Source: a virus
Length of the DNA stretch: 10,854 nucleotides
UHGV virus genome: UHGV-0142836
Direction: 5' to 3' (one strand)
Shown here: piece after piece, positions 1 to 10,854 of the stretch
How positions within the stretch are numbered: position 1 is the first letter of the stretch
Layout: the number at the start of each line of letters is the position of its first letter
Program-made: the position numbers and the translations under genes
The notes under the pieces: generated by a model
What the model was told of the DNA's origin: nothing
Database searches by the model: none
What the model saw: the letters and a program-made list of their open reading frames with translations, nothing else

Positions 1-692
1 TCATAGTTCCTTCGTAGTTCCTCTTAAAAAATCACTTACAGACACCTTAATATCTATACAGATTTCACGTAGAACACGATTAGTGCGTAAAACAGCTATT
101 ATGTTAAAAACACACTGTATACGTATCAGTACTGATTTATAAGGGTTTTGTGTATTTGAAGATAAGAGGCTATACAGCACCTTGAGAGCATGTCTTCTAA
201 GTCATTGATACATAAGGTCACAGAAGTTTGTGTCTGTTACAGAGAAAACTGGATAGGACTTCACAGAACTACAAAATGTTACAGCTATTGATAGGTGAAA
301 TCTTCTTGATAGATGCTTTGAAGTGTGGTGAAGGTTTCTTGAGGTGGAATTAACAGATGCTATGAAGAAAGTCAATAGTTGGTTATAGATATTTTAACTG
401 CTTTTGCAAAGGGGGTGCTATATCGTGAATCTGGGGTACTTAACAGCCATCAATCATGAGGTAGATTCTACCGAATCAACTGTGTAGATATTTTTAAGAT
501 TATCGGTGAAGGGGGAATGCAGAGGGGGTACTACGATTTTTATAAAAATTTTCAGAAGCTAAATAACTACTGTACAGATTTTATACAACTCTACCAAACA
601 TCATAGAAAGCTCTGTAGCGAGTTTTAACCCCATTTTTAGGGGTAGTCTATAGGTATGTACCGCCCACCTTTAAATAAAGGGGTAAAATCGC

Positions 693-3621: not shown

Positions 3622-3750
3622 AGCTTCTCAGACGCTCTCAATCGCATTCTAACGCAAAAAACTACCTTGTTTTAGGGTGGGTAATACCACTGTACAGGCT
3701 ACCCCTGAAAAAGACTGTTTAGCTCGTTACAGAGCGATTGAGGAGGTCTG
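3622..3750. repeat. R2 element copy 2: arms at 3631-3650 and 3717-3750 around a ~66-bp spacer containing hairpin GGGTA...TACCC and palindrome CTGTACAG
   Basis: Arms near-identical to copy 1 while the spacer is unrelated; the element ends 5 nt before the AAGGAG Shine-Dalgarno of the gene at 3772. Confidence 0.6.
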
Positions 3751-3771: not shown

Positions 3772-4095
3772 ATGAACAATTACGAATTACAGATTTTCGT
3801 TGATGCCGACACTGCTATGATGATTCAGGCTTTCAGTGATTCCGGTGTATCAATTGACTTTGATAAATTACTAAAGCTGATGGCTGATAATGCAGAAAAC
3901 ATCTCTGACTTTATTCAGTCGGTGGAGTTTAACGAGCCTCGAATGATGCTACCAATTACAGACTCAAACATGAAAAGATTGGTTATTGAGCAAACGAACA
4001 AATACAGTATTTCCCCAGAGCAATTTTTGAAAGGTGCTGTGACAATCCTGTACAGCGATAATATTTTGGTGACGGATTCTGTGAGGATTCACTAA
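3772..4095 (+). CDS. Hypothetical protein, 107 aa
   Basis: AAGGAG sits 10 nt upstream of ATG 3772; intact ORF; no recognisable motif. Confidence 0.55.
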   Translation: MNNYELQIFVDADTAMMIQAFSDSGVSIDFDKLLKLMADNAENISDFIQSVEFNEPRMMLPITDSNMKRLVIEQTNKYSISPEQFLKGAVTILYSDNILVTDSVRIH

Positions 4096-4196: not shown

Positions 4197-4225
4197 TTGA
4201 CAAATAACATTGAGCATGACATAAT
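4197..4225 (+). promoter_or_regulatory. Sigma70-like promoter P2: TTGACA, 17-bp spacer, CATAAT
   Basis: TTGACA at 4197-4202 and CATAAT at 4220-4225, followed by 'ttgtatatat' exactly as in P1. Confidence 0.4.
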
Positions 4226-4232
4226 TGTATAT

Positions 4233-4416
4233 ATAGGGAGAGCAATTCTCTCTTATTTTCTTTCAATAATCCGATGGATGGATATTCTGAGTTGGAAAGG
4301 TGCAATGCTTTTCGTCATGGCCTTTCAGTTTAGTCTGAGAGGCTATCTCAAAAAGTGCTTAATCATTCATTGAACCCTTTACAGCTTTGCCCTAACTCAT
4401 GATTAGGGCTTTCTTT
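4233..4416 (+). ncRNA. Candidate small RNA or structured leader transcribed from P2, ending at the first terminator
   Basis: About 185 nt between the predicted start site and the terminator at 4389-4416; no ORF with a ribosome-binding site; hairpin GAGAG-caatt-CTCTC directly after the predicted start. Confidence 0.25.
4389..4416 (+). terminator. Intrinsic terminator T1
   Basis: Perfect 7-bp stem GCCCTAA / TTAGGGC with a 7-nt loop, followed by TTTCTTT. Confidence 0.5.
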
Positions 4417-4485: not shown

Positions 4486-4519
4486 AAAGCCCTTCACAGA
4501 TTATGTTTAGGGCTTTTTT
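4486..4519 (+). terminator. Intrinsic terminator T2
   Basis: Stem 'aaagccct' / 'agggcttt' with a 15-nt loop, followed by a T-run; its 3' half 'tttagggcttt' repeats T1. Confidence 0.45.
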
Positions 4520-4629
4520 CAGCTTTTAAAAAGCATACTTGGCAAACCGCCTTTTAAGCCTCTTCTAAGTTCGTAGGATGTCAGGTGTGCTTTTTAAAAA
4601 CTGAATATTACTTAGAAGAGGAAAATGAA

Positions 4630-5337
4630 ATGGAAAATCTATATATTAGCGGTAGAAAGGTTGATAGCTTCGGTGACTGGTCGCCACAGACTGAACATCC
4701 AGCTATCACTATTCAGCGTCAAGAGCATGACAAGCGCATTGAGCTTGAGCAATCGCTAAAGATGTCACCAAAAACAACCATCTTTGTGTCTCCTGAACCT
4801 CAAGAGATGCCTGATGTTTGCAAGGGTGAAGCATTACTTGAGCTTGAAAAGAAATATTACCCACTGCTGAAAGCACAAAGAATTAAACTTGATGACGCTT
4901 ACAGCAAAGTTACCCTGATGCAATCAGCTATTGAGCCATCAGAATTTGAGATTCAGGATGAATTGTCACAGAAACCATTTGTCTATTACCAATACGAAGA
5001 CAATGATGGTTTTGGTACTTTTCCTGAGAATATCCCAGACGTGATTAATAATCTTCCTGATGGATATCGAATTGTGAAAATGATTGGAGCTTCAAGAGGT
5101 GATGGTCAGTTTATTTACATGACCAATAAGAGCGATGAAGAACTCCGTGAAATTGCCAGACAGAACATCTTAGCATCACGTAACAAGCAACTTGAAAATG
5201 TTAAGTTGTGTCTCTTAAGAGAGCTTCAGGCTATGAAAGACCTTATTTCTGCATATGAAACGCAGAAGAAGATTGCTATGCAGGCTGATATTGAGCAGTT
5301 AGTGAAGATTTCTCAGAAGTATAGCAAGGTACTTTAA
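4630..5337 (+). CDS. Hypothetical protein, 235 aa, with a predicted coiled-coil C-terminus
   Basis: The six-frame ORF begins at GTG 4585; the in-frame ATG at 4630 has a GAGGA Shine-Dalgarno about 8 nt upstream. No recognisable domain. Confidence 0.55.
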   Translation: MENLYISGRKVDSFGDWSPQTEHPAITIQRQEHDKRIELEQSLKMSPKTTIFVSPEPQEMPDVCKGEALLELEKKYYPLLKAQRIKLDDAYSKVTLMQSAIEPSEFEIQDELSQKPFVYYQYEDNDGFGTFPENIPDVINNLPDGYRIVKMIGASRGDGQFIYMTNKSDEELREIARQNILASRNKQLENVKLCLLRELQAMKDLISAYETQKKIAMQADIEQLVKISQKYSKVL

Positions 5338-5577: not shown

Positions 5578-5624
5578 AAAGATTGGTTGGGTGTATGAGA
5601 TAGGTTCTATCGAATCTATAACAC

Positions 5625-5668
5625 GGGGAGAGATTATCGATATTATTCGGTAGTTTCTCCCTTTTTTG
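5625..5668 (+). terminator. Intrinsic terminator after the 71-aa gene
   Basis: Stem GGGAGA (5626-5631) / TCTCCC (5656-5661), extendable with G-U pairs, followed by TTTTTT at 5662-5667. Confidence 0.5.
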
Positions 5669-5684
5669 TATATGAGATAGTCTT

Positions 5685-5769
5685 CTATCGAATCCTATGT
5701 GCTACGTGAAATCTTCTGAACAGATATACCCACCAAAAATTATTTTTTACGTAGCTCACGCTTAACAGA
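5685..5769 (+). repeat. R1 element copy a: conserved stem-loop (GCTACGTGAA 5701-5710 pairing with TTTACGTAGC 5745-5754) plus box 'tcacgcttaacaga', 16 nt before ATG 5785
   Basis: About 85% identical over ~85 bp to 7957-8034, with the same spacing to the downstream start codon. Confidence 0.65.
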
Positions 5770-5784
5770 GGTGAAATATGAACA

Positions 5785-7875
5785 ATGGCACAATTTAAAG
5801 TTGATAGTTTTATCGTTGAGCTAGGCTTCAGCGAGAGCGTTATTAAGGGCTTGCAAAGAGTTGAAAAGGCAGCTTTGCAGTCAGCACAAAGAATTGAAAA
5901 GAACCTAAATAAAGGTTTTAGGATTAATACAAAGCAGCTTGATAGTAATTTAACGGCTTCTTTAGGGCAGCTTGAAAGAAAGTTTAATAAGACTTTTGAT
6001 AAGATTGAACAGAGAGCAAGAAATACTAAAGCTTTCCAGTTTACAACCAGATTTAATGACACTGTTAATCCTCCAAAACAATCAAGGCAACCACGAATTA
6101 GCGGAAACAGAGCAATCACAGCAGCGCATAGCGTGAATATGTCTAAGCTTGGTGATATTAATCCGCTGATGGCTAAAATGTTTAAAGCACAGTATTACAG
6201 CTTAAGCGGTAAGGCTGGTAATATTGGAAGTGAAAAGTTTAACGCTGAACTTGCAAAATTAAATCAATCTCTTCGTGAAACGTTGAATAAACTCAGGTCA
6301 CAGACAAAGACCACCAGCAAAAACAATCACAGTGAAAATGCTTCGAATGGTCTGGATGTATTAGCTACGAGTGCAATCAAAGCAGGTACAGCCATTTATA
6401 GTTTTCAGACAGCCTTAGAAGCTTACAAGAAGGTTATGGAGGTTGGTCTGAAAAAAGAAGCATCACAACGAGCGGCACAATTCGTTTTAGGTGATGAAGG
6501 TGCTAAACGAGCTACAGAATTTGTGAAGAATCTTGCTAATAATACAGGTGTTGACCAGATTGAGACATTAAGCAGCTTTGCTAAGTTTTCCGCTGGTGCT
6601 GGTGATATGAATGCAGACCAGAAAGAATCCTTATTTAGTAATGTGATTGGTACATCCCGACTAATGGGTTTAAGCACTGATGAGATTAACGGGATTCTAA
6701 AAGCTTTCGAGCAGATGGCTTCTAAAGGGAAGATTCAGGCTGAAGAGCTACGTGGTCAATTAGGGGACAGAATGGCAGGTGCTTTTCAGTTATTTGCCAG
6801 AAGCCTTGGGATGACTACAGAGCAATTAGATGCAGCTATGAAGAACGGTAAAGTTCTTTCTAAAGATGTTCTTCCTAAAGTATCCGCTGAAATGGGAAGG
6901 ATGATTGATAAAGCTGGTGGATGGGAAAAGATTATTAACTCTACTCAGACGCAGTTAGGCCGCCTTTCTAATTCATGGAATAATAATCTGGCCTTAATGT
7001 TCGATGGTTCACAGGAAGGTTTAACAGACTTTACAAGGTCACTGACTAATTTACTTAATTCGCTAGGTGGGCAATCTAAAAATCTTGGTGAACATTTTGG
7101 CGACTTGATGAAAAGTATGTCAAACGGTATTGATGATTTAACCACGATTAGCTACCGAGTGCAGGGATTCTTTGACAGAGTGACCCTTGCTTACAGAGAA
7201 TTAAATGACACTCAAAAAGCTGTAGCTGATGGTATCGCAAATGGCCTGTTAAGTGCATTAAAGGGACTTGCTGGTATTGTTGCTGTAAGGTCTGGTATTG
7301 GTGCTGTAGGTGGCATCTGGAACTTAATTAGGGCTATTTCCACGCTTGGAAATGTAGCAAATACAGCAGCGGGAAGAATCAATTCACGTTCTGGTACTGG
7401 TAGTGTTGAAGGTGGTAAAGGAAAATTATCTGTAGCTGATGCAATTACCAAAGTAATGATTGTTGGTATGGCAACTGATGTGATTAACTCCATTGTTAAA
7501 CCGTTCTATGAACGTCAGATGAGTAAGTCAGATAATCCAATTGACAAAGTTGTAAGGTCAAAGGTGGAACCCACAGACCAAGCATTGACTGGTGACATGA
7601 ACTCTTTAGCTGCTGTTTTATGGGCTATGGTTCAGGGCAAATCAAAGGATGTTCCACAGCTTTCACCTGAAGCATTAAATAATCTGAAAGGTCGAGTGGA
7701 AACATTCACACAAGATTTAAAGGTTATCAAGCCGTCAGTAAACATTCAGCCTCAGACAATCAATATCACAACTCAGACGGTACTTGATGGAAAGGTTATT
7801 GATGAAAGAACCACATCGCATATTAATCGTATGCAGGAAGATACCTTGATTAGCTCAGCTTACCCAGAGGAATAA
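5785..7875 (+). CDS. Protein with a phage tail tape-measure-like domain, 696 aa
   Basis: The segment 'FEQMASKGKIQAEELRGQLGDRMAGAFQLFARSLGMTTEQLDAAMKNGKVLSKDVLPKV' resembles the conserved tape-measure domain of lambda-like phages; Gly/Ala-rich hydrophobic stretch 'GLLSALKGLAGIVAVRSGIGAVGG'. Unusually short for a tape measure and lacking neighbouring tail genes. Confidence 0.5.
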   Translation: MAQFKVDSFIVELGFSESVIKGLQRVEKAALQSAQRIEKNLNKGFRINTKQLDSNLTASLGQLERKFNKTFDKIEQRARNTKAFQFTTRFNDTVNPPKQSRQPRISGNRAITAAHSVNMSKLGDINPLMAKMFKAQYYSLSGKAGNIGSEKFNAELAKLNQSLRETLNKLRSQTKTTSKNNHSENASNGLDVLATSAIKAGTAIYSFQTALEAYKKVMEVGLKKEASQRAAQFVLGDEGAKRATEFVKNLANNTGVDQIETLSSFAKFSAGAGDMNADQKESLFSNVIGTSRLMGLSTDEINGILKAFEQMASKGKIQAEELRGQLGDRMAGAFQLFARSLGMTTEQLDAAMKNGKVLSKDVLPKVSAEMGRMIDKAGGWEKIINSTQTQLGRLSNSWNNNLALMFDGSQEGLTDFTRSLTNLLNSLGGQSKNLGEHFGDLMKSMSNGIDDLTTISYRVQGFFDRVTLAYRELNDTQKAVADGIANGLLSALKGLAGIVAVRSGIGAVGGIWNLIRAISTLGNVANTAAGRINSRSGTGSVEGGKGKLSVADAITKVMIVGMATDVINSIVKPFYERQMSKSDNPIDKVVRSKVEPTDQALTGDMNSLAAVLWAMVQGKSKDVPQLSPEALNNLKGRVETFTQDLKVIKPSVNIQPQTINITTQTVLDGKVIDERTTSHINRMQEDTLISSAYPEE

Positions 7876-7899
7876 ACAATGTTAGAACTACTAATATTT

Positions 7900-7917
7900 A
7901 TTGCCACACATGGCAAT
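7900..7917. repeat. Perfect palindrome ATTGCCA-caca-TGGCAAT just downstream of the 696-aa gene
   Basis: 7-bp arms with a 4-nt spacer; possible weak terminator or operator. No clear T-tract. Confidence 0.3.
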
Positions 7918-7956
7918 CTATTAATCTTTATCTAGTATGACGATTCAACTATGAAT

Positions 7957-8034
7957 AGTCGAATGCTACGTGATTTCTTCTGAACAGATACCAACATCAA
8001 AAATTAGATTTCACGTAGCTCACGCTTAACAGAA
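7957..8034 (+). repeat. R1 element copy b: stem GCTACGTGA (7965-7973) / TCACGTAGC (8011-8019), box 'tcacgcttaacaga' (8020-8033), 15 nt before ATG 8049
   Basis: Perfect 9-bp stem with a 37-nt loop whose sequence ('tcttctgaacagata...caaaaatta') is conserved with copy a. Confidence 0.65.
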
Positions 8035-8048
8035 TAGGAATAACAACA

Positions 8049-8819
8049 ATGTTTGACACAAAGCAAATTAGATACTCAGGTAAAGATGGTATCTATTTTC
8101 ACCTTAGAGATAATGTAGAATCTTTTCTTGCCTTAACAGCTACTGAACAGATGGACTATGACAGCCCTATGATGGTGACAACTCAGGCTATGCAATCAGG
8201 GCAAACCGTCACAGATAATGTTCAGAGAGCACCTAAGACCATCTCTATTAGCGGTGTTGTAGTGGTTGATTCGACGGGTTCAATTCTATTAACCAGACAG
8301 GGGCAACTTGTAGAGACCTTTATTTCTACGGTTGAACAATGGCGAGACCAGAAGCAAATCATCACTATTGTTTGTAGAGATGGAATAGCTATCACTGATA
8401 GTATCATTACTCAGTTTAAAGCGAGTAAAGAGCATACCATTGCTAATGGTCTTCGTATTCAGATGACCTTCCAAGGTGTAGAATTTCGTTCAATCGTAGG
8501 TCAAACTGATATTTCGGCTGCAACTGGAAAAGCCGCGACTACGAATGATGGTGGTGCTACCAGTAAAAAGAATACAGGGAATACTACGACAAGTTTAGGT
8601 AATGGTATGTTGCTGTGTCAGGAGTTATATAATCGCTCTACGAGTGAACTCACTAATGAGCAACTTCAAGCCCGTATCAATTGTGGTAGAAGTGTCAAAG
8701 TTGAGAACGGAAAAAGCACCTTCTCAGATGCCGCTAATGAGCAGGCTTCAAAAGTGCTTAAGTCGGGTAATGCTTTACGGAAATTTAGTGTGAATCCGAA
8801 TAAGAAGGGCACTTATTGA
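8049..8819 (+). CDS. Hypothetical protein, 256 aa, with a Thr/Gly/Ser-rich central region
   Basis: Intact ORF immediately after R1b; no recognisable motif. A distal-tail or other structural role is conceivable only from its position after the tape-measure-like gene. Confidence 0.55.
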
Positions 8820-8851: not shown

Positions 8852-10372
8852 TTACAGTTGATAAGCGTCAATATCCAGTAGCTCTTTATCAGCAATTTCA
8901 AAGATTGGTGACCCATCATTTAGCGGTAACGGGTTTGTAGGTATGGTGATTTTAGTGTCGTTCTGTAGCGTTACAGTTACCGAATCCTTACCCAATGTAA
9001 GCCCTTTTAGATGTTTGGACAAAATCAACTGACACTCGACACGACCTGCTTTAGTTGTCAGGTCAATATCTTTAAGCTGGGGTAGTTCCTTATCAGTGAG
9101 TGAAGCCTTACGCCTCATGTTATCAATCGTGGTCTGTAGCTCTGTGCGCTTCTGGTTAAGTCCCTTCACCTGTGTTTTCAACTCTGTAATATCATCCATT
9201 TCAAGAAGTAGGGCGGTAGCTTTCTTGATTCTAGCTGTGACAATTTCAACCTCATGCTGTAACGCTGCAATCTTCCTCTCTGATTCTCCATCATTCCCCA
9301 CGTCAATCATCCCCAGAAAATTATCAATCATCCATCGGTCAAACGGTTTACGCTTCAACGGTGGAACATCACAGCGACCGTCAGGATTGTTATTGCACCT
9401 GTAAACTCCTGCATACTTATTCTTAGTCCCTGTAGGGTGAACACTAGCCCCACACTGACACCGGAATAATCCCTTGAAGATGTTAATCGTTAATGGGTTA
9501 TCACTTGCAGGTGTACGGCCTTTACGATTTTTATCGAGGATTTCTTGAGCTTTATTGAACGTTGCAGCATCTATAGCGGCTTCGTAGTAGTTCGGTATAG
9601 CGGGGCGGTCATTGCGCTGTGATGCTGGTAACGTGCCTATTGTTGTCTCCGACCTTAAGATGGTGCGTACAGAGTGGACACTAAACCCGTTAGCATCTTT
9701 ACGCCGTGAGAATGAACTAATGTTATTAGCCTGTAGGTGACGTGCAATGTTATGTAGACTTTCACCATCTAGCAGCAGTTTGAAAATCAGTCTTACAGTC
9801 TCAGCGTGTTCATTGACTTCAAAAGTCTCAGGGTCAATCCATCCGGGGACCATCTTTGTTAAACGTTGTTTACCAGCAAGGGCAAGTTTTGCACGTTGCC
9901 CCCATTTCTGAGAAACACGGAAAGACTTCTGTTTACTCTCCTGATGCGCTAGGTAGCTTTTAACCCGCTGAATGATTGAGATTCCTAAATCATCGGATAG
10001 AGCATCCCTTGTGTAGATTAGCCCATCCTGTAGAGTGTGAATCTCGATACCATGAGCAATAATGCGGTTCATCAAGGCTTCTGTTTCAAGGTGTTCTAAG
10101 CGGCCTATACGGTCGATACTCTCAACAAGCAAAATCGTACCTTTTGAAAACTCCCCAGACTCAATACGGGCTAACATGTCACCAAACTGACCAGTAAGGT
10201 GCTTACCTTTGTAACCGGATAGACCCTCATCACTGAAAGACGCTACTACTTGAGCATCGCTATTCTTCTTCAACCATTGCTTGAACAGGTCATTTTGTCG
10301 TCTGGTTGAATCTGCACCTTCAGCGCCTTGTATGGCTGAACTGTACCGAAGGTATGTAATTACGCTTCTCAT
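8852..10372 (-). CDS. Large serine recombinase (phage or element integrase), 506 aa
   Basis: N-terminal resolvase-type catalytic domain (YLRYSS...Q with the Ser nucleophile, DEGLSGYKG, IDRIGR); a Cys cluster (CQCGASVH...YRCNNNPDGRCD) consistent with a zinc ribbon; C-terminal coiled-coil segment. Confidence 0.9.
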   Translation of the reverse strand: MRSVITYLRYSSAIQGAEGADSTRRQNDLFKQWLKKNSDAQVVASFSDEGLSGYKGKHLTGQFGDMLARIESGEFSKGTILLVESIDRIGRLEHLETEALMNRIIAHGIEIHTLQDGLIYTRDALSDDLGISIIQRVKSYLAHQESKQKSFRVSQKWGQRAKLALAGKQRLTKMVPGWIDPETFEVNEHAETVRLIFKLLLDGESLHNIARHLQANNISSFSRRKDANGFSVHSVRTILRSETTIGTLPASQRNDRPAIPNYYEAAIDAATFNKAQEILDKNRKGRTPASDNPLTINIFKGLFRCQCGASVHPTGTKNKYAGVYRCNNNPDGRCDVPPLKRKPFDRWMIDNFLGMIDVGNDGESERKIAALQHEVEIVTARIKKATALLLEMDDITELKTQVKGLNQKRTELQTTIDNMRRKASLTDKELPQLKDIDLTTKAGRVECQLILSKHLKGLTLGKDSVTVTLQNDTKITIPTNPLPLNDGSPIFEIADKELLDIDAYQL

Positions 10373-10528
10373 GGTGATAAACTCTCATGCAATTGATTAT
10401 CATTTAAAGATAAGCTTATAACCGTTATGGCTAATGCTACAATGCCGAATAGCTACAATACAATGACCCTTGAATGAAGTCTATTCGGTTTTCTAAGAGA
10501 CCTGTTAAAAACAGGACAATATCAGGTG

Positions 10529-10554
10529 TAGTTGGGCTTGTTCCAACCCCTATG
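10529..10554. repeat. att-like repeat part B (right copy), containing hairpin GTTGG-gcttgtt-CCAAC
   Basis: 'tagttgggcttgttccaacccctat' matches 2093-2118 with 2 mismatches; lies about 155 bp upstream of the recombinase start. Confidence 0.4.
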
Positions 10555-10824
10555 ACTATGCAATTTTCCAAGTATCTAAGCAGTTTTACACAGATTCTAT
10601 GCAGTATCGGTATAGTCCCTTTTTATCATAACTTATTGAAATATATAAAGAATATGTGAAGTCCCTTTTCAGGGTAAACTGTATCGTGTTAGTCGTCCCT
10701 CTCCAGACTCCTAGAAAAGTGCTATATACAGGAGTATATAACGCTATATAGATGTTTGGTCACCATACGTTACAGTTGCAAGAGATAACAATCAGCTATG
10801 TGAAAGTTAGGAGGTGATGGTTAT

Positions 10825-10842
10825 AGTTGATTCGGTTAGTTC
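10825..10842. repeat. att-like repeat part A (right copy), 18 bp identical to 2080-2097
   Basis: Exact 18-bp direct repeat about 8.75 kb from its partner; flanking sequence differs on both sides, as expected for a recombination junction. Confidence 0.45.
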
Positions 10843-10854
10843 TAGGAATCAACC

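Follow-up and report, generated by a model that had tools for sequence, protein, structure and literature searches.

The virus genome UHGV-0142836, a stretch of 10,854 nt that was analysed over its whole length (the window), carries two neighbouring tail genes, and ahead of each of them lies one copy of R1, a palindromic cassette of roughly 75 bp that is the subject of this study. The first gene encodes a tape-measure protein (TMP) of 696 aa, with matches to Pfam TMP_3 (E = 7e-20) and PHROG 4036 (E = 5e-98), and the second a Dit-like baseplate protein of 256 aa, the tube initiator (TI), with matches to Pfam Dit_like (E = 2e-17) and PHROG 3721 (E = 6e-129). Both genes have ~75% DNA identity to those of Felixounavirus, where the counterpart of TI is the gene after the TMP gene; in the Felixounavirus Bas63 this next gene encodes the tube initiator gp18 (PMC12609058). 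Compared with the TMP of the Felixounavirus garuso, that of the window shows 29% identity overall, the first ~45 residues being near-identical and the C-terminal end conserved. The window belongs to a family of chromosomal islands which, from their gene content, look like parasites (satellites) of Felix-O1-type phages, their presumed helpers.

The R1 cassette and the two tail-gene junctions

A repeat search and alignment gave the R1 copies as an 88-nt direct repeat (5700-5787 and 7964-8051; start-to-start spacing 2264) with 82% identity, far above chance. This bears out the initial annotation, which had reported a repeated stem-loop upstream of both genes and had noted that its copies bracket the 696-aa gene as direct repeats. 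The bounds given there (5685-5769 and 7957-8034) require adjustment, as homology starts at about 5698 and 7962 instead and 5685-5697 is a different small module. The proposed stem of 9-10 bp is present with arms of 9 nt, except that the right arm of copy 1, TTACGTAGC, gives one G.T and not a G-C pair, and the loop, put at ~35 nt, measures 37 nt between these arms. The degenerate recurrence of the right half described at 58-96 is real, as a relic of that half alone, in which 20 of 23 positions are identical to AGATTTCACGTAGCTCACGCTTA with 0 expected. The features of R1 in the window are:

5698-5768, plus strand: R1 copy 1, upstream of the TMP gene (coordinates mapped onto the R1 alignment)
5701-5709, plus strand: left arm of copy 1, GCTACGTGA
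5710-5746, plus strand: loop of copy 1, 37 nt, A/T-rich
5741-5746, plus strand: -10-like hexamer of copy 1, TATTTT
5747-5755, plus strand: right arm of copy 1, TTACGTAGC
5756-5761 and 5762-5768, plus strand: 3' flank of copy 1, TCACGC and TTAACAG
7962-8032, plus strand: R1 copy 2, upstream of the TI (Dit-like) gene
7965-7973, plus strand: left arm of copy 2, GCTACGTGA
7974-8010, plus strand: loop of copy 2, 37 nt, A/T-rich
8005-8010, plus strand: -10-like hexamer of copy 2, TAGATT
8011-8019, plus strand: right arm of copy 2, TCACGTAGC
8020-8025 and 8026-8032, plus strand: 3' flank of copy 2, TCACGC and TTAACAG
60-82, plus strand: right-half relic of R1, AGATTTCACGTAGAACACGATTA, without a left arm (nhmmer E = 0.06)

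After the right arm, both copies continue with TCACGCTTAACAGA, the Shine-Dalgarno (SD) sequence and the ATG, and the ATGs at 5785 and 8049 each lie exactly 29 nt past the arm. The near-identical spacing that had been noted therefore holds in the window. It is not a general rule, since the modules near R1 (an 85-nt module upstream of it and a 60-nt hairpin module between it and the SD) assort independently, and in about a third of related islands the extra 60-nt module intervenes between R1 and the SD. The pattern GCTACGTGA-N(30-45)-YACGTAGC matched 5701-5755 and 7965-8019, and was matched by none of 200 dinucleotide-preserving shuffles. For both copies the minimum-free-energy fold is the R1 hairpin, of modest stability (-17.6 and -19.6 kcal/mol; z = -1.4 and -2.6), and the covariance models of Rfam 15 gave no match to the whole window up to E = 1. 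R1 is not a terminator, since its stem, which encloses a loop of 37-38 nt, is followed by TCACGCTTAAC without a U-tract; the terminator scan did not call it, though it did call the hairpin t3 at 5625-5662.

The occurrence of R1 was surveyed in about 95 related loci from E. coli genomes, one-genome-per-species contigs, IMG/VR and metagenomes. A profile search of these loci found R1 directly upstream of the TMP and TI genes only, with no site elsewhere in the islands and none in phage loci; across dozens of related islands its orientation is constant and its position always intergenic. Both junctions could be read in 71 loci, of which 36 carry R1 before the TI gene only, 25 at both junctions, 1 (L063) before the TMP gene only and nine at neither, the last comprising eight phage loci (six distinct phages) and the island L050. 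About 95% of islands have R1 at the TI junction. Searched by itself, R1 gave matches in 448 E. coli genomes, at a median of one site in each, and the three weakest of these matches, when examined, were all at the TMP/baseplate junction of an island. This median rules out a dispersed palindromic repeat or MITE of the REP or ERIC kind. A borrowed phage element is likewise ruled out: BLAST of R1 against 50,697 phage records gave one chance 22-nt match and nothing else, blastn-short with all R1 variants against garuso and six phage loci gave nothing beyond chance, and no R1 was found at the TMP/TI junction of 252 Felixounavirus records. A gapped pattern, CTACGTGA-N(30-45)-YACGTAG, proved too loose for the viral collection; those examined among the matches listed were chance or unrelated coding sequence, and about half of the matches listed came from one 59-nt coding family.

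A metagenomic Felixounavirus-like phage contig (L085) has a 45-nt spacer at its TMP/initiator junction (3955-3999), with a 10-bp hairpin and GAAA loop followed by TTAACTACAGAGG. A spacer of this kind was sought in further phages, and all 252 of the Felixounavirus records were without it.

Judged from the islands that lack it, R1 appears to be an insertion at both junctions, the remaining features of which are:

5625-5662, plus strand: t3, a strong intrinsic terminator (16-bp stem, then TTTTTTG) between the 71-aa gene and R1 copy 1
5769-5774, plus strand: SD of the TMP gene, GAGGTG, native to the junction and outside the R1 insertion
5785-7875, plus strand: TMP gene, 696 aa
7884-8053, plus strand: intergenic insertion of 170 bp carrying R1 copy 2, with a direct repeat, ACAATGTT, at 7876-7883 and 8046-8053
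8049-8819, plus strand: TI gene, 256 aa

In Felixounavirus the TMP and TI genes lie side by side without a spacer, the stop codon of the one overlapping the start codon of the other, and the islands L050, L028 and L029, which are free of R1 at this junction, read GAGGAATAAACAATG followed directly by TTTGACACA. The insertion with copy 2 includes a weak hairpin at 7900-7917. It also retains the original TI start codon, which now opens an 18-codon hydrophobic open reading frame (ORF) at 7879-7935 (MLELLIFIATHGNLLIFI).

At the TMP leader, t3 is kept in all related islands, whether R1 is present or not. The minimal leader is t3 followed directly by TTTTTTGTATGAGGTGAA(T)ATG, and R1, like other small modules, has entered after the T-run and ahead of the SD; islands without R1 here have this form or one containing GTATATGAACGCTTAACAGAGGTG. 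TTAACAG is present in the TMP leader of these islands too, and therefore lies outside the R1 insertion proper. A promoter would not fit into the native junctions, and read-through can suffice to express the tail genes; the operon that would provide it runs from a strong promoter at 4197 through the 235-aa, 71-aa, TMP and TI genes. Truncated or decayed copies of R1 were found upstream of the TMP gene in L058 (a deletion) and L003 (a 27-nt insertion and a degenerate right arm). A direct repeat of ~28 nt (5593-5620 and 5668-5698, TATGAGATAG..TTCTATCGAATC..TAT) lies on either side of t3, each repeat being a small hairpin, and related islands have one, both or neither of them. On the basis of these alignments the TMP leader region appears to be a hotspot of small palindromic modules with short flanking duplications.

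Constraint on the arms and a putative promoter

The 46 distinct R1 sequences, each of 83 nt, align without gaps. Columns 10-16 (the left arm core) and 54, 56 and 58-60 (on the right) are invariant, the arm core being the inverted pair TACGTGA / T[C/T]ACGTA. Five loop types (A-E) can be told apart in the enclosed sequence, type E sharing almost nothing with A-D, and the arm-to-arm gap is 38 nt in all five, the exceptions being 39 nt in three loci and one 65-nt variant with a 27-nt insertion. The arms are frozen across islands whose proteins are only 33-80% identical. R1 thus presents two sites of the same sequence, at a fixed distance and conserved as sequence, as in paired operators.

Comparison of the stem across related copies for covariation, which the initial annotation had put forward, yielded none: RNAalifold predicted 7 pairs, none of them with a compensatory change, and for an extended 17-pair stem no covariation measure exceeded shuffles. 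The core polymorphisms are C-to-T opposite G only (24 of 46 sequences), the left-arm G never changing, and in a frequent right-arm variant, GC to CA, two pairs are lost with no compensating change. Each of the 46 variants has the hairpin as its minimum-free-energy fold; the plus strand is just 0.6 kcal/mol more stable than the minus strand, which is uninformative.

A stem in the leader of the 235-aa gene, analysed in the same loci, served as the control:

4518-4605, plus strand: leader hairpin of the 235-aa gene, a 27-nt inverted repeat (4518-4544 and 4579-4605); the true ATG of the gene is at 4630

Of the 18 pairs predicted for this stem, 10 show compensatory double changes and many show G.U. 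Its loop sequence CCTCTTCTAAGT (4559-4570) is the perfect complement of the SD region ACTTAGAAGAGG (4610-4621), and in islands with the SD GAGGTGAA the loop motif changes to TTCACCTC; the leader is a genuine element of translational control at the RNA level. Since the leader stem compensates whereas the R1 arms are frozen over the same divergence, the constraint on R1 is on its sequence and not merely on pairing, and a constraint on sequence and geometry points to protein recognition. R1 is most likely a protein-recognised transcription control site rather than a simple RNA hairpin. The earlier suggestion of either a DNA operator or promoter or a structured RNA leader accordingly stands as regards a cis-regulatory module, with its RNA half less favoured in view of the invariant arms and the missing compensation.

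Beside the right arm, T48 and A49 (each at least 90% conserved) and T53 (100%) are separated by the variable columns 50-52, conservation falling on those positions that are informative in a -10 element. The hexamer that adjoins this arm reads TAGATT, TATTTT, TAGAAT, TAATTT or TAGTTT in loop types A-D, and TAnnnT thus stands directly against the arm in four of the five loop types. A -10-like hexamer also abuts the right arm of the 57-bp repeated promoter-like stem-loops in Felix O1 and garuso (TAAAGT followed directly by AAGCCCC). Copy 1 lies downstream of the strong terminator t3, and copy 2 downstream of the weak hairpin.

The reading that we tentatively favour, with somewhat less than even confidence, is that R1 is a portable, activator-dependent promoter/operator cassette acting mainly on DNA. 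The two fixed inverted arm sequences, 38 nt apart, would bracket an A/T-rich segment ending in the -10-like TAnnnT. A sequence-specific protein, supplied by the island or the host or made on helper-phage infection, would bind both arms and control a weak internal promoter that has no -35 element. With transcription starting 5-9 nt past the hexamer, the left arm would span roughly -52 to -44 and the right arm roughly -6 to +2. The TMP and TI genes would in this way gain their own regulated start downstream of terminators, beyond read-through from the upstream operon. With regard to the binding protein, a 92-aa ORF gave sub-threshold ribbon-helix-helix (RHH), DndE and helix-turn-helix matches in Pfam, PHROG and NCBIfam searches; this ORF and the 107-aa ORF look, on inspection of their sequences, like tandem RHH proteins, and are candidate binders of R1.

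Several observations weigh against such a cassette. No -35 element is recognisable, and a sigma-70 scan (threshold 9/12) listed no site in either R1 copy; the best manual match scores 8/12 (TGAACA-18-TAGATT/TATTTT), and a -35 is missing altogether from loop types C and D. Type E is without TAnnnT beside the right arm, having GTGAAA-16-TATAAC further upstream instead. The arm 7-mer is not enriched in the phage genome (9 occurrences against about 10.5 expected), which makes a late activator shared with the promoters of the helper unlikely, and a search of garuso and six related phage loci for a helper late-promoter motif brought up nothing like R1. R1 is also dispensable: it is missing from both junctions of L050 and from one junction in L063 and in the 36 loci with a TI copy only, and since islands without R1 copies exist, internal promoters are not required. 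The C-to-T changes are G.U-compatible on the plus strand, an asymmetry that would equally be expected of an RNA stem. For the 92-aa candidate, a single-sequence AlphaFold model had a pLDDT of 53 and is unreliable, and PDB sequence searches found nothing. The mode of regulation of late transcription in Felix O1 has been reported as not known (PMC3185647).

Other kinds of site were considered for R1 and set aside. Sites for CRP, IHF, NarL and TorR, the DnaA box and the MotA box gave, by eye, partial matches that are not conserved across loop types. An attC-like or serine-recombinase att site was rejected, as there is no matching second half-site and the real att core lies at about 10461-10473. 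A boxA/nut-like reading of CGCTTAACA was dropped because its spacing misfits the consensus.

Activator-dependent late promoters with a weak or absent -35 are found in P4 and P2 (Psid/PLL, Ogr/Delta sites) and in Mu (C, Mor), where the activator binds a dyad-symmetric site upstream of the -35 region. R1 is like them in standing before the morphogenetic genes of a probable satellite and, given the predicted start, in having its left arm at the upstream position calculated above. It is unlike them in that their sites are single compact dyads, whereas the R1 arms are 46 bp apart centre to centre and the second arm would cover the predicted start site. Protein family searches detected no Ogr/Delta/C-like protein in the island, and, as noted, the presumed helper phage shows no excess of the arm sequence.

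Other readings of R1

A less probable reading, which we nevertheless take seriously, is that R1 works as RNA, its hairpin, at the head of each tail-gene segment in read-through transcripts, being recognised by a sequence-specific RNA-binding protein or a nuclease and setting processing, stability or antitermination. The hairpin is preserved as the best fold throughout the variants, every core-stem polymorphism is G.U-compatible on the plus strand, and a T.T mismatch (columns 7/63) becomes a pair in ten variants through four kinds of change (A-U in three, U-A in six and U-G in one). The fixed orientation and the position in a leader or between cistrons are as expected of an RNA element, as is the finding that in islands without R1 the stretch from t3 to the SD is too short to hold a promoter, their tail genes normally being expressed by read-through. 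The same operon also has a structured RNA leader upstream of the 235-aa gene, and the phage contig L085 a hairpin at the corresponding TMP/initiator junction. Against this stand the missing compensation in a stem whose neighbour covaries heavily over the same divergence, the two pairs broken by the GC-to-CA variant, the inner stem extension, which is mismatched in the commonest TI variant, and the near-equal folding energies of the two strands. A loop of conserved length, 38 nt, would be unusual for a simple stabiliser hairpin, Rfam offers no match, and the absent U-tract leaves no terminator.

Intercistronic mRNA hairpins such as the REP-type stabilisers and the T7 RNase III sites show compensatory evolution or long duplexes. 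R1 resembles them as a stem-loop between cistrons, which could set segmental mRNA stability or processing. It differs in its 9-14-bp stem of frozen sequence, its large loop of constant length, its lack of covariation and its absence from dispersed sites in the genome.

An improbable reading is that R1 is a passenger, a palindromic module spread by illegitimate or homologous recombination and kept by founder effects, with little or no regulatory part. It fits the presence/absence polymorphism with sharp boundaries at both junctions, the 8-bp direct repeat ACAATGTT around the 170-bp insertion that carries the TI copy, the short duplications of neighbouring modules (TATGAG), and the combinatorial assortment of the modules M1, R1 and M3. 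The decayed copies before the TMP gene in L058 and L003 and the relic at 60-82 point the same way. A passenger does not, however, account for invariant arm cores and constant spacing over five loop types and such diverged proteins, which argue for purifying selection, nor for the presence of R1 at the TI junction of nearly all islands. A mobile repeat would also be expected to scatter, and R1 was not found elsewhere in E. coli genomes or in the islands.

The two copies may, with still lower probability, be recombination linkers through which the enclosed TMP gene is swapped or lost, as the initial annotation had proposed, a role compatible with the other readings. The model for this is the promoter-early stem-loop (PeSL) cassettes of T4-type phages (PMC2839356; PMC4122927), which are documented to mediate such shuffling (PMC2839356). 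R1 copies bracket the TMP gene as direct repeats, the N-terminal region of the TMP is mosaic among islands (50-100% identity) next to a TI N-terminus that is 97% identical, and loop types occur at both positions, as with type B at the TI site of L044. On the other hand, none of the 71 readable loci lacks the TMP gene between R1 copies, only 25 of them have both copies, and the mosaic breakpoints lie inside the TMP gene, away from R1. The two copies of an island mostly differ in loop type, and there is therefore no sign of frequent exchange between them.

Apart from shuffling, PeSLs and R1 have several traits in common. R1, too, is a short intergenic module in which an A/T-rich stretch, promoter-like elements and a stem-loop end at the SD and ATG; a PeSL stem can overlap or flank the -10, as the R1 arms bracket the A/T-rich TAnnnT segment, and R1 is intergenic at both sites. 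In both, copies flank genes as direct repeats, tied to modular shuffling in PeSLs and perhaps in R1, and the repeated promoter-like stem-loop units of Felix O1 and garuso are of PeSL style. PeSLs differ in having consensus or near-consensus sigma-70 -35 and -10 elements at a spacing of 16-18 nt, as against 8/12 at best in R1 and two loop types with no -35, and in their G/C-rich stems that terminate transcription, R1 having no terminator tail. A genome can hold dozens of PeSLs, which are concentrated in hyperplastic regions and vary in their stems, whereas R1 has at most two copies per island, besides one relic, with invariant arms set 38 nt apart, and the PeSL stem sits beside the promoter, whereas R1 would enclose the whole of it.

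Finally, direct control of translation by pairing with, or exposing, the SD of the downstream gene, which the initial annotation had allowed for, is very improbable and direct SD occlusion is largely refuted. The spacing to the SD and ATG is the same for both copies of the window, TCACGC of copy 1 can form a small hairpin with GAGGTG, and in the commonest TI variant ATTTCTTCTG can pair with CAGAATAGGAAT (-8.5 kcal/mol), but the R1 loop and its own ribosome-binding region give a mean of only -5.3 kcal/mol (z = 0.0), non-cognate pairs score equally, and the distance to the SD varies by 60 nt with the extra module of many islands, whereas the leader loop of the 235-aa gene and its SD, as the positive control in the same test, average -16 kcal/mol (z = -3.8).

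The island and its presumed helper

Of 5,426 complete E. coli genomes, 570 (about 10%) carry the same element of ~11 kb, at various chromosomal sites, and it is present also in E. albertii and Citrobacter. The family is marked by an HNH endonuclease, a serine recombinase and its own TMP and TI related to Felixounavirus, and has no capsid, tube or sheath genes. In the window the recombinase, identified by protein family search, is:

minus strand: large serine recombinase gene, 506 aa

Gene order (107-aa, 235-aa and 71-aa ORFs, t3, TMP, TI, recombinase) is kept even where the recombinases are only ~33% identical. Beyond the HNH, TMP, Dit-like and recombinase genes, Pfam, PHROG and NCBIfam gave sub-threshold matches only for the ORFs of the island, and the 71-aa and 235-aa ORFs showed no similarity to the phage tail chaperones. 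The window is a circularly permuted 10.85-kb island: its end (10355-10854) and start (1-500) are contiguous in the chromosomal copy L003, and the attachment core lies near 10461-10473, where in L002 the two ends of the island meet beside the recombinase gene. It looks like an excised or circular form with attP.

A number of other repeats were observed in the window. The TTAACAG of the R1 3' flank belongs to a strongly over-represented motif, with 17 copies of TTAACAG where 2.6 would be expected and 11 of GTTACAG where 1.5 would be, mostly on the plus strand; (C)TTAACAG/GTTACAG is concentrated in positions 1-2100, ~2 kb without a convincing ORF. Garuso has 17 copies of CTTAACA in a 1.1-kb non-coding region where transcription units converge (49400-50500; L016 4400-5500), and the island may mimic phage iterons, with an origin or another protein-binding array. 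A second repeated long-range stem lies at 1944-2047 and 3624-3750, in which AGACGCTCTCAATCGC pairs with GCGATTGAGGAGGTCT across about 60-86 nt and encloses GTTACAGAG; 23 nt separate the end of its second copy from the ATG of the 107-aa gene (3772). Strong sigma-70-like promoters at 2205-2254 and 4197-4253 have in common TTGACA-N17-(TAGGAT/CATAAT)-TGTATATAT. The one at 4197 is directly followed by a terminator hairpin (4235-4253), with another at 4389-4409, a layout resembling that of a late promoter under antitermination control. The motifs TAGTTGATTCGGT and TAGTTGGG.TTGT.CCAACCCCTAT are repeated, direct and inverted, at 470-486, 2076-2117, 10529-10553 and 10826-10843, the copy at 2076-2117 looking like a hybrid of the two; they may be recombinase sites or mark an invertible segment, and in some related islands a small recombinase gene lies in their region. 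In the Citrobacter island L005 (1868-5990) the tape-measure matches are split by about 2 kb, and the gene may be much longer or interrupted.

The PLEs of Vibrio cholerae encode TAC, TMP and the hub BhuB, and thereby give chimeric tails on the virulent myovirus ICP1 (PMC12987554). The likeness here lies in the context and not in R1 itself: both are small chromosomal islands with a large serine recombinase that appear to parasitise a virulent myovirus, and both have their own tape measure and hub or initiator protein with no tube, sheath or capsid genes. Host and helper family are different, and satellite behaviour of the E. coli island is deduced from its genes. PLE regulation involves the small RNA SviR and phage-triggered excision, and we know of nothing R1-like described in PLEs. 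From these analogies the element resembles an undescribed PLE-like satellite family, and a literature search found no paper linking Felixounavirus with satellites.

It is conceivable, though in our view unlikely, that R1 is a switch which times TMP and TI production in this undescribed E. coli satellite family of Felix-O1-type phages. An island regulator (such as a tandem RHH-like protein) or an infection-induced factor would bind the palindrome pair and turn the -35-less internal promoter on only in the presence of the helper phage, the outcome being chimeric tails, as for PLE and ICP1 in Vibrio.

Were R1 a passenger insertion, the finding would be an ordinary one. The frozen sequence of R1 and the covarying anti-SD leader of the 235-aa gene would represent two regulatory logics in one small operon. 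As a regulated promoter/operator, R1 would be the control point of the only two structural genes of the island, through which the satellite could replace the tail-length ruler and tube initiator of its helper, a strategy so far shown for the Vibrio PLEs only. It would then also offer a 75-bp handle on how an E. coli satellite senses a virulent Felix-O1-type phage.

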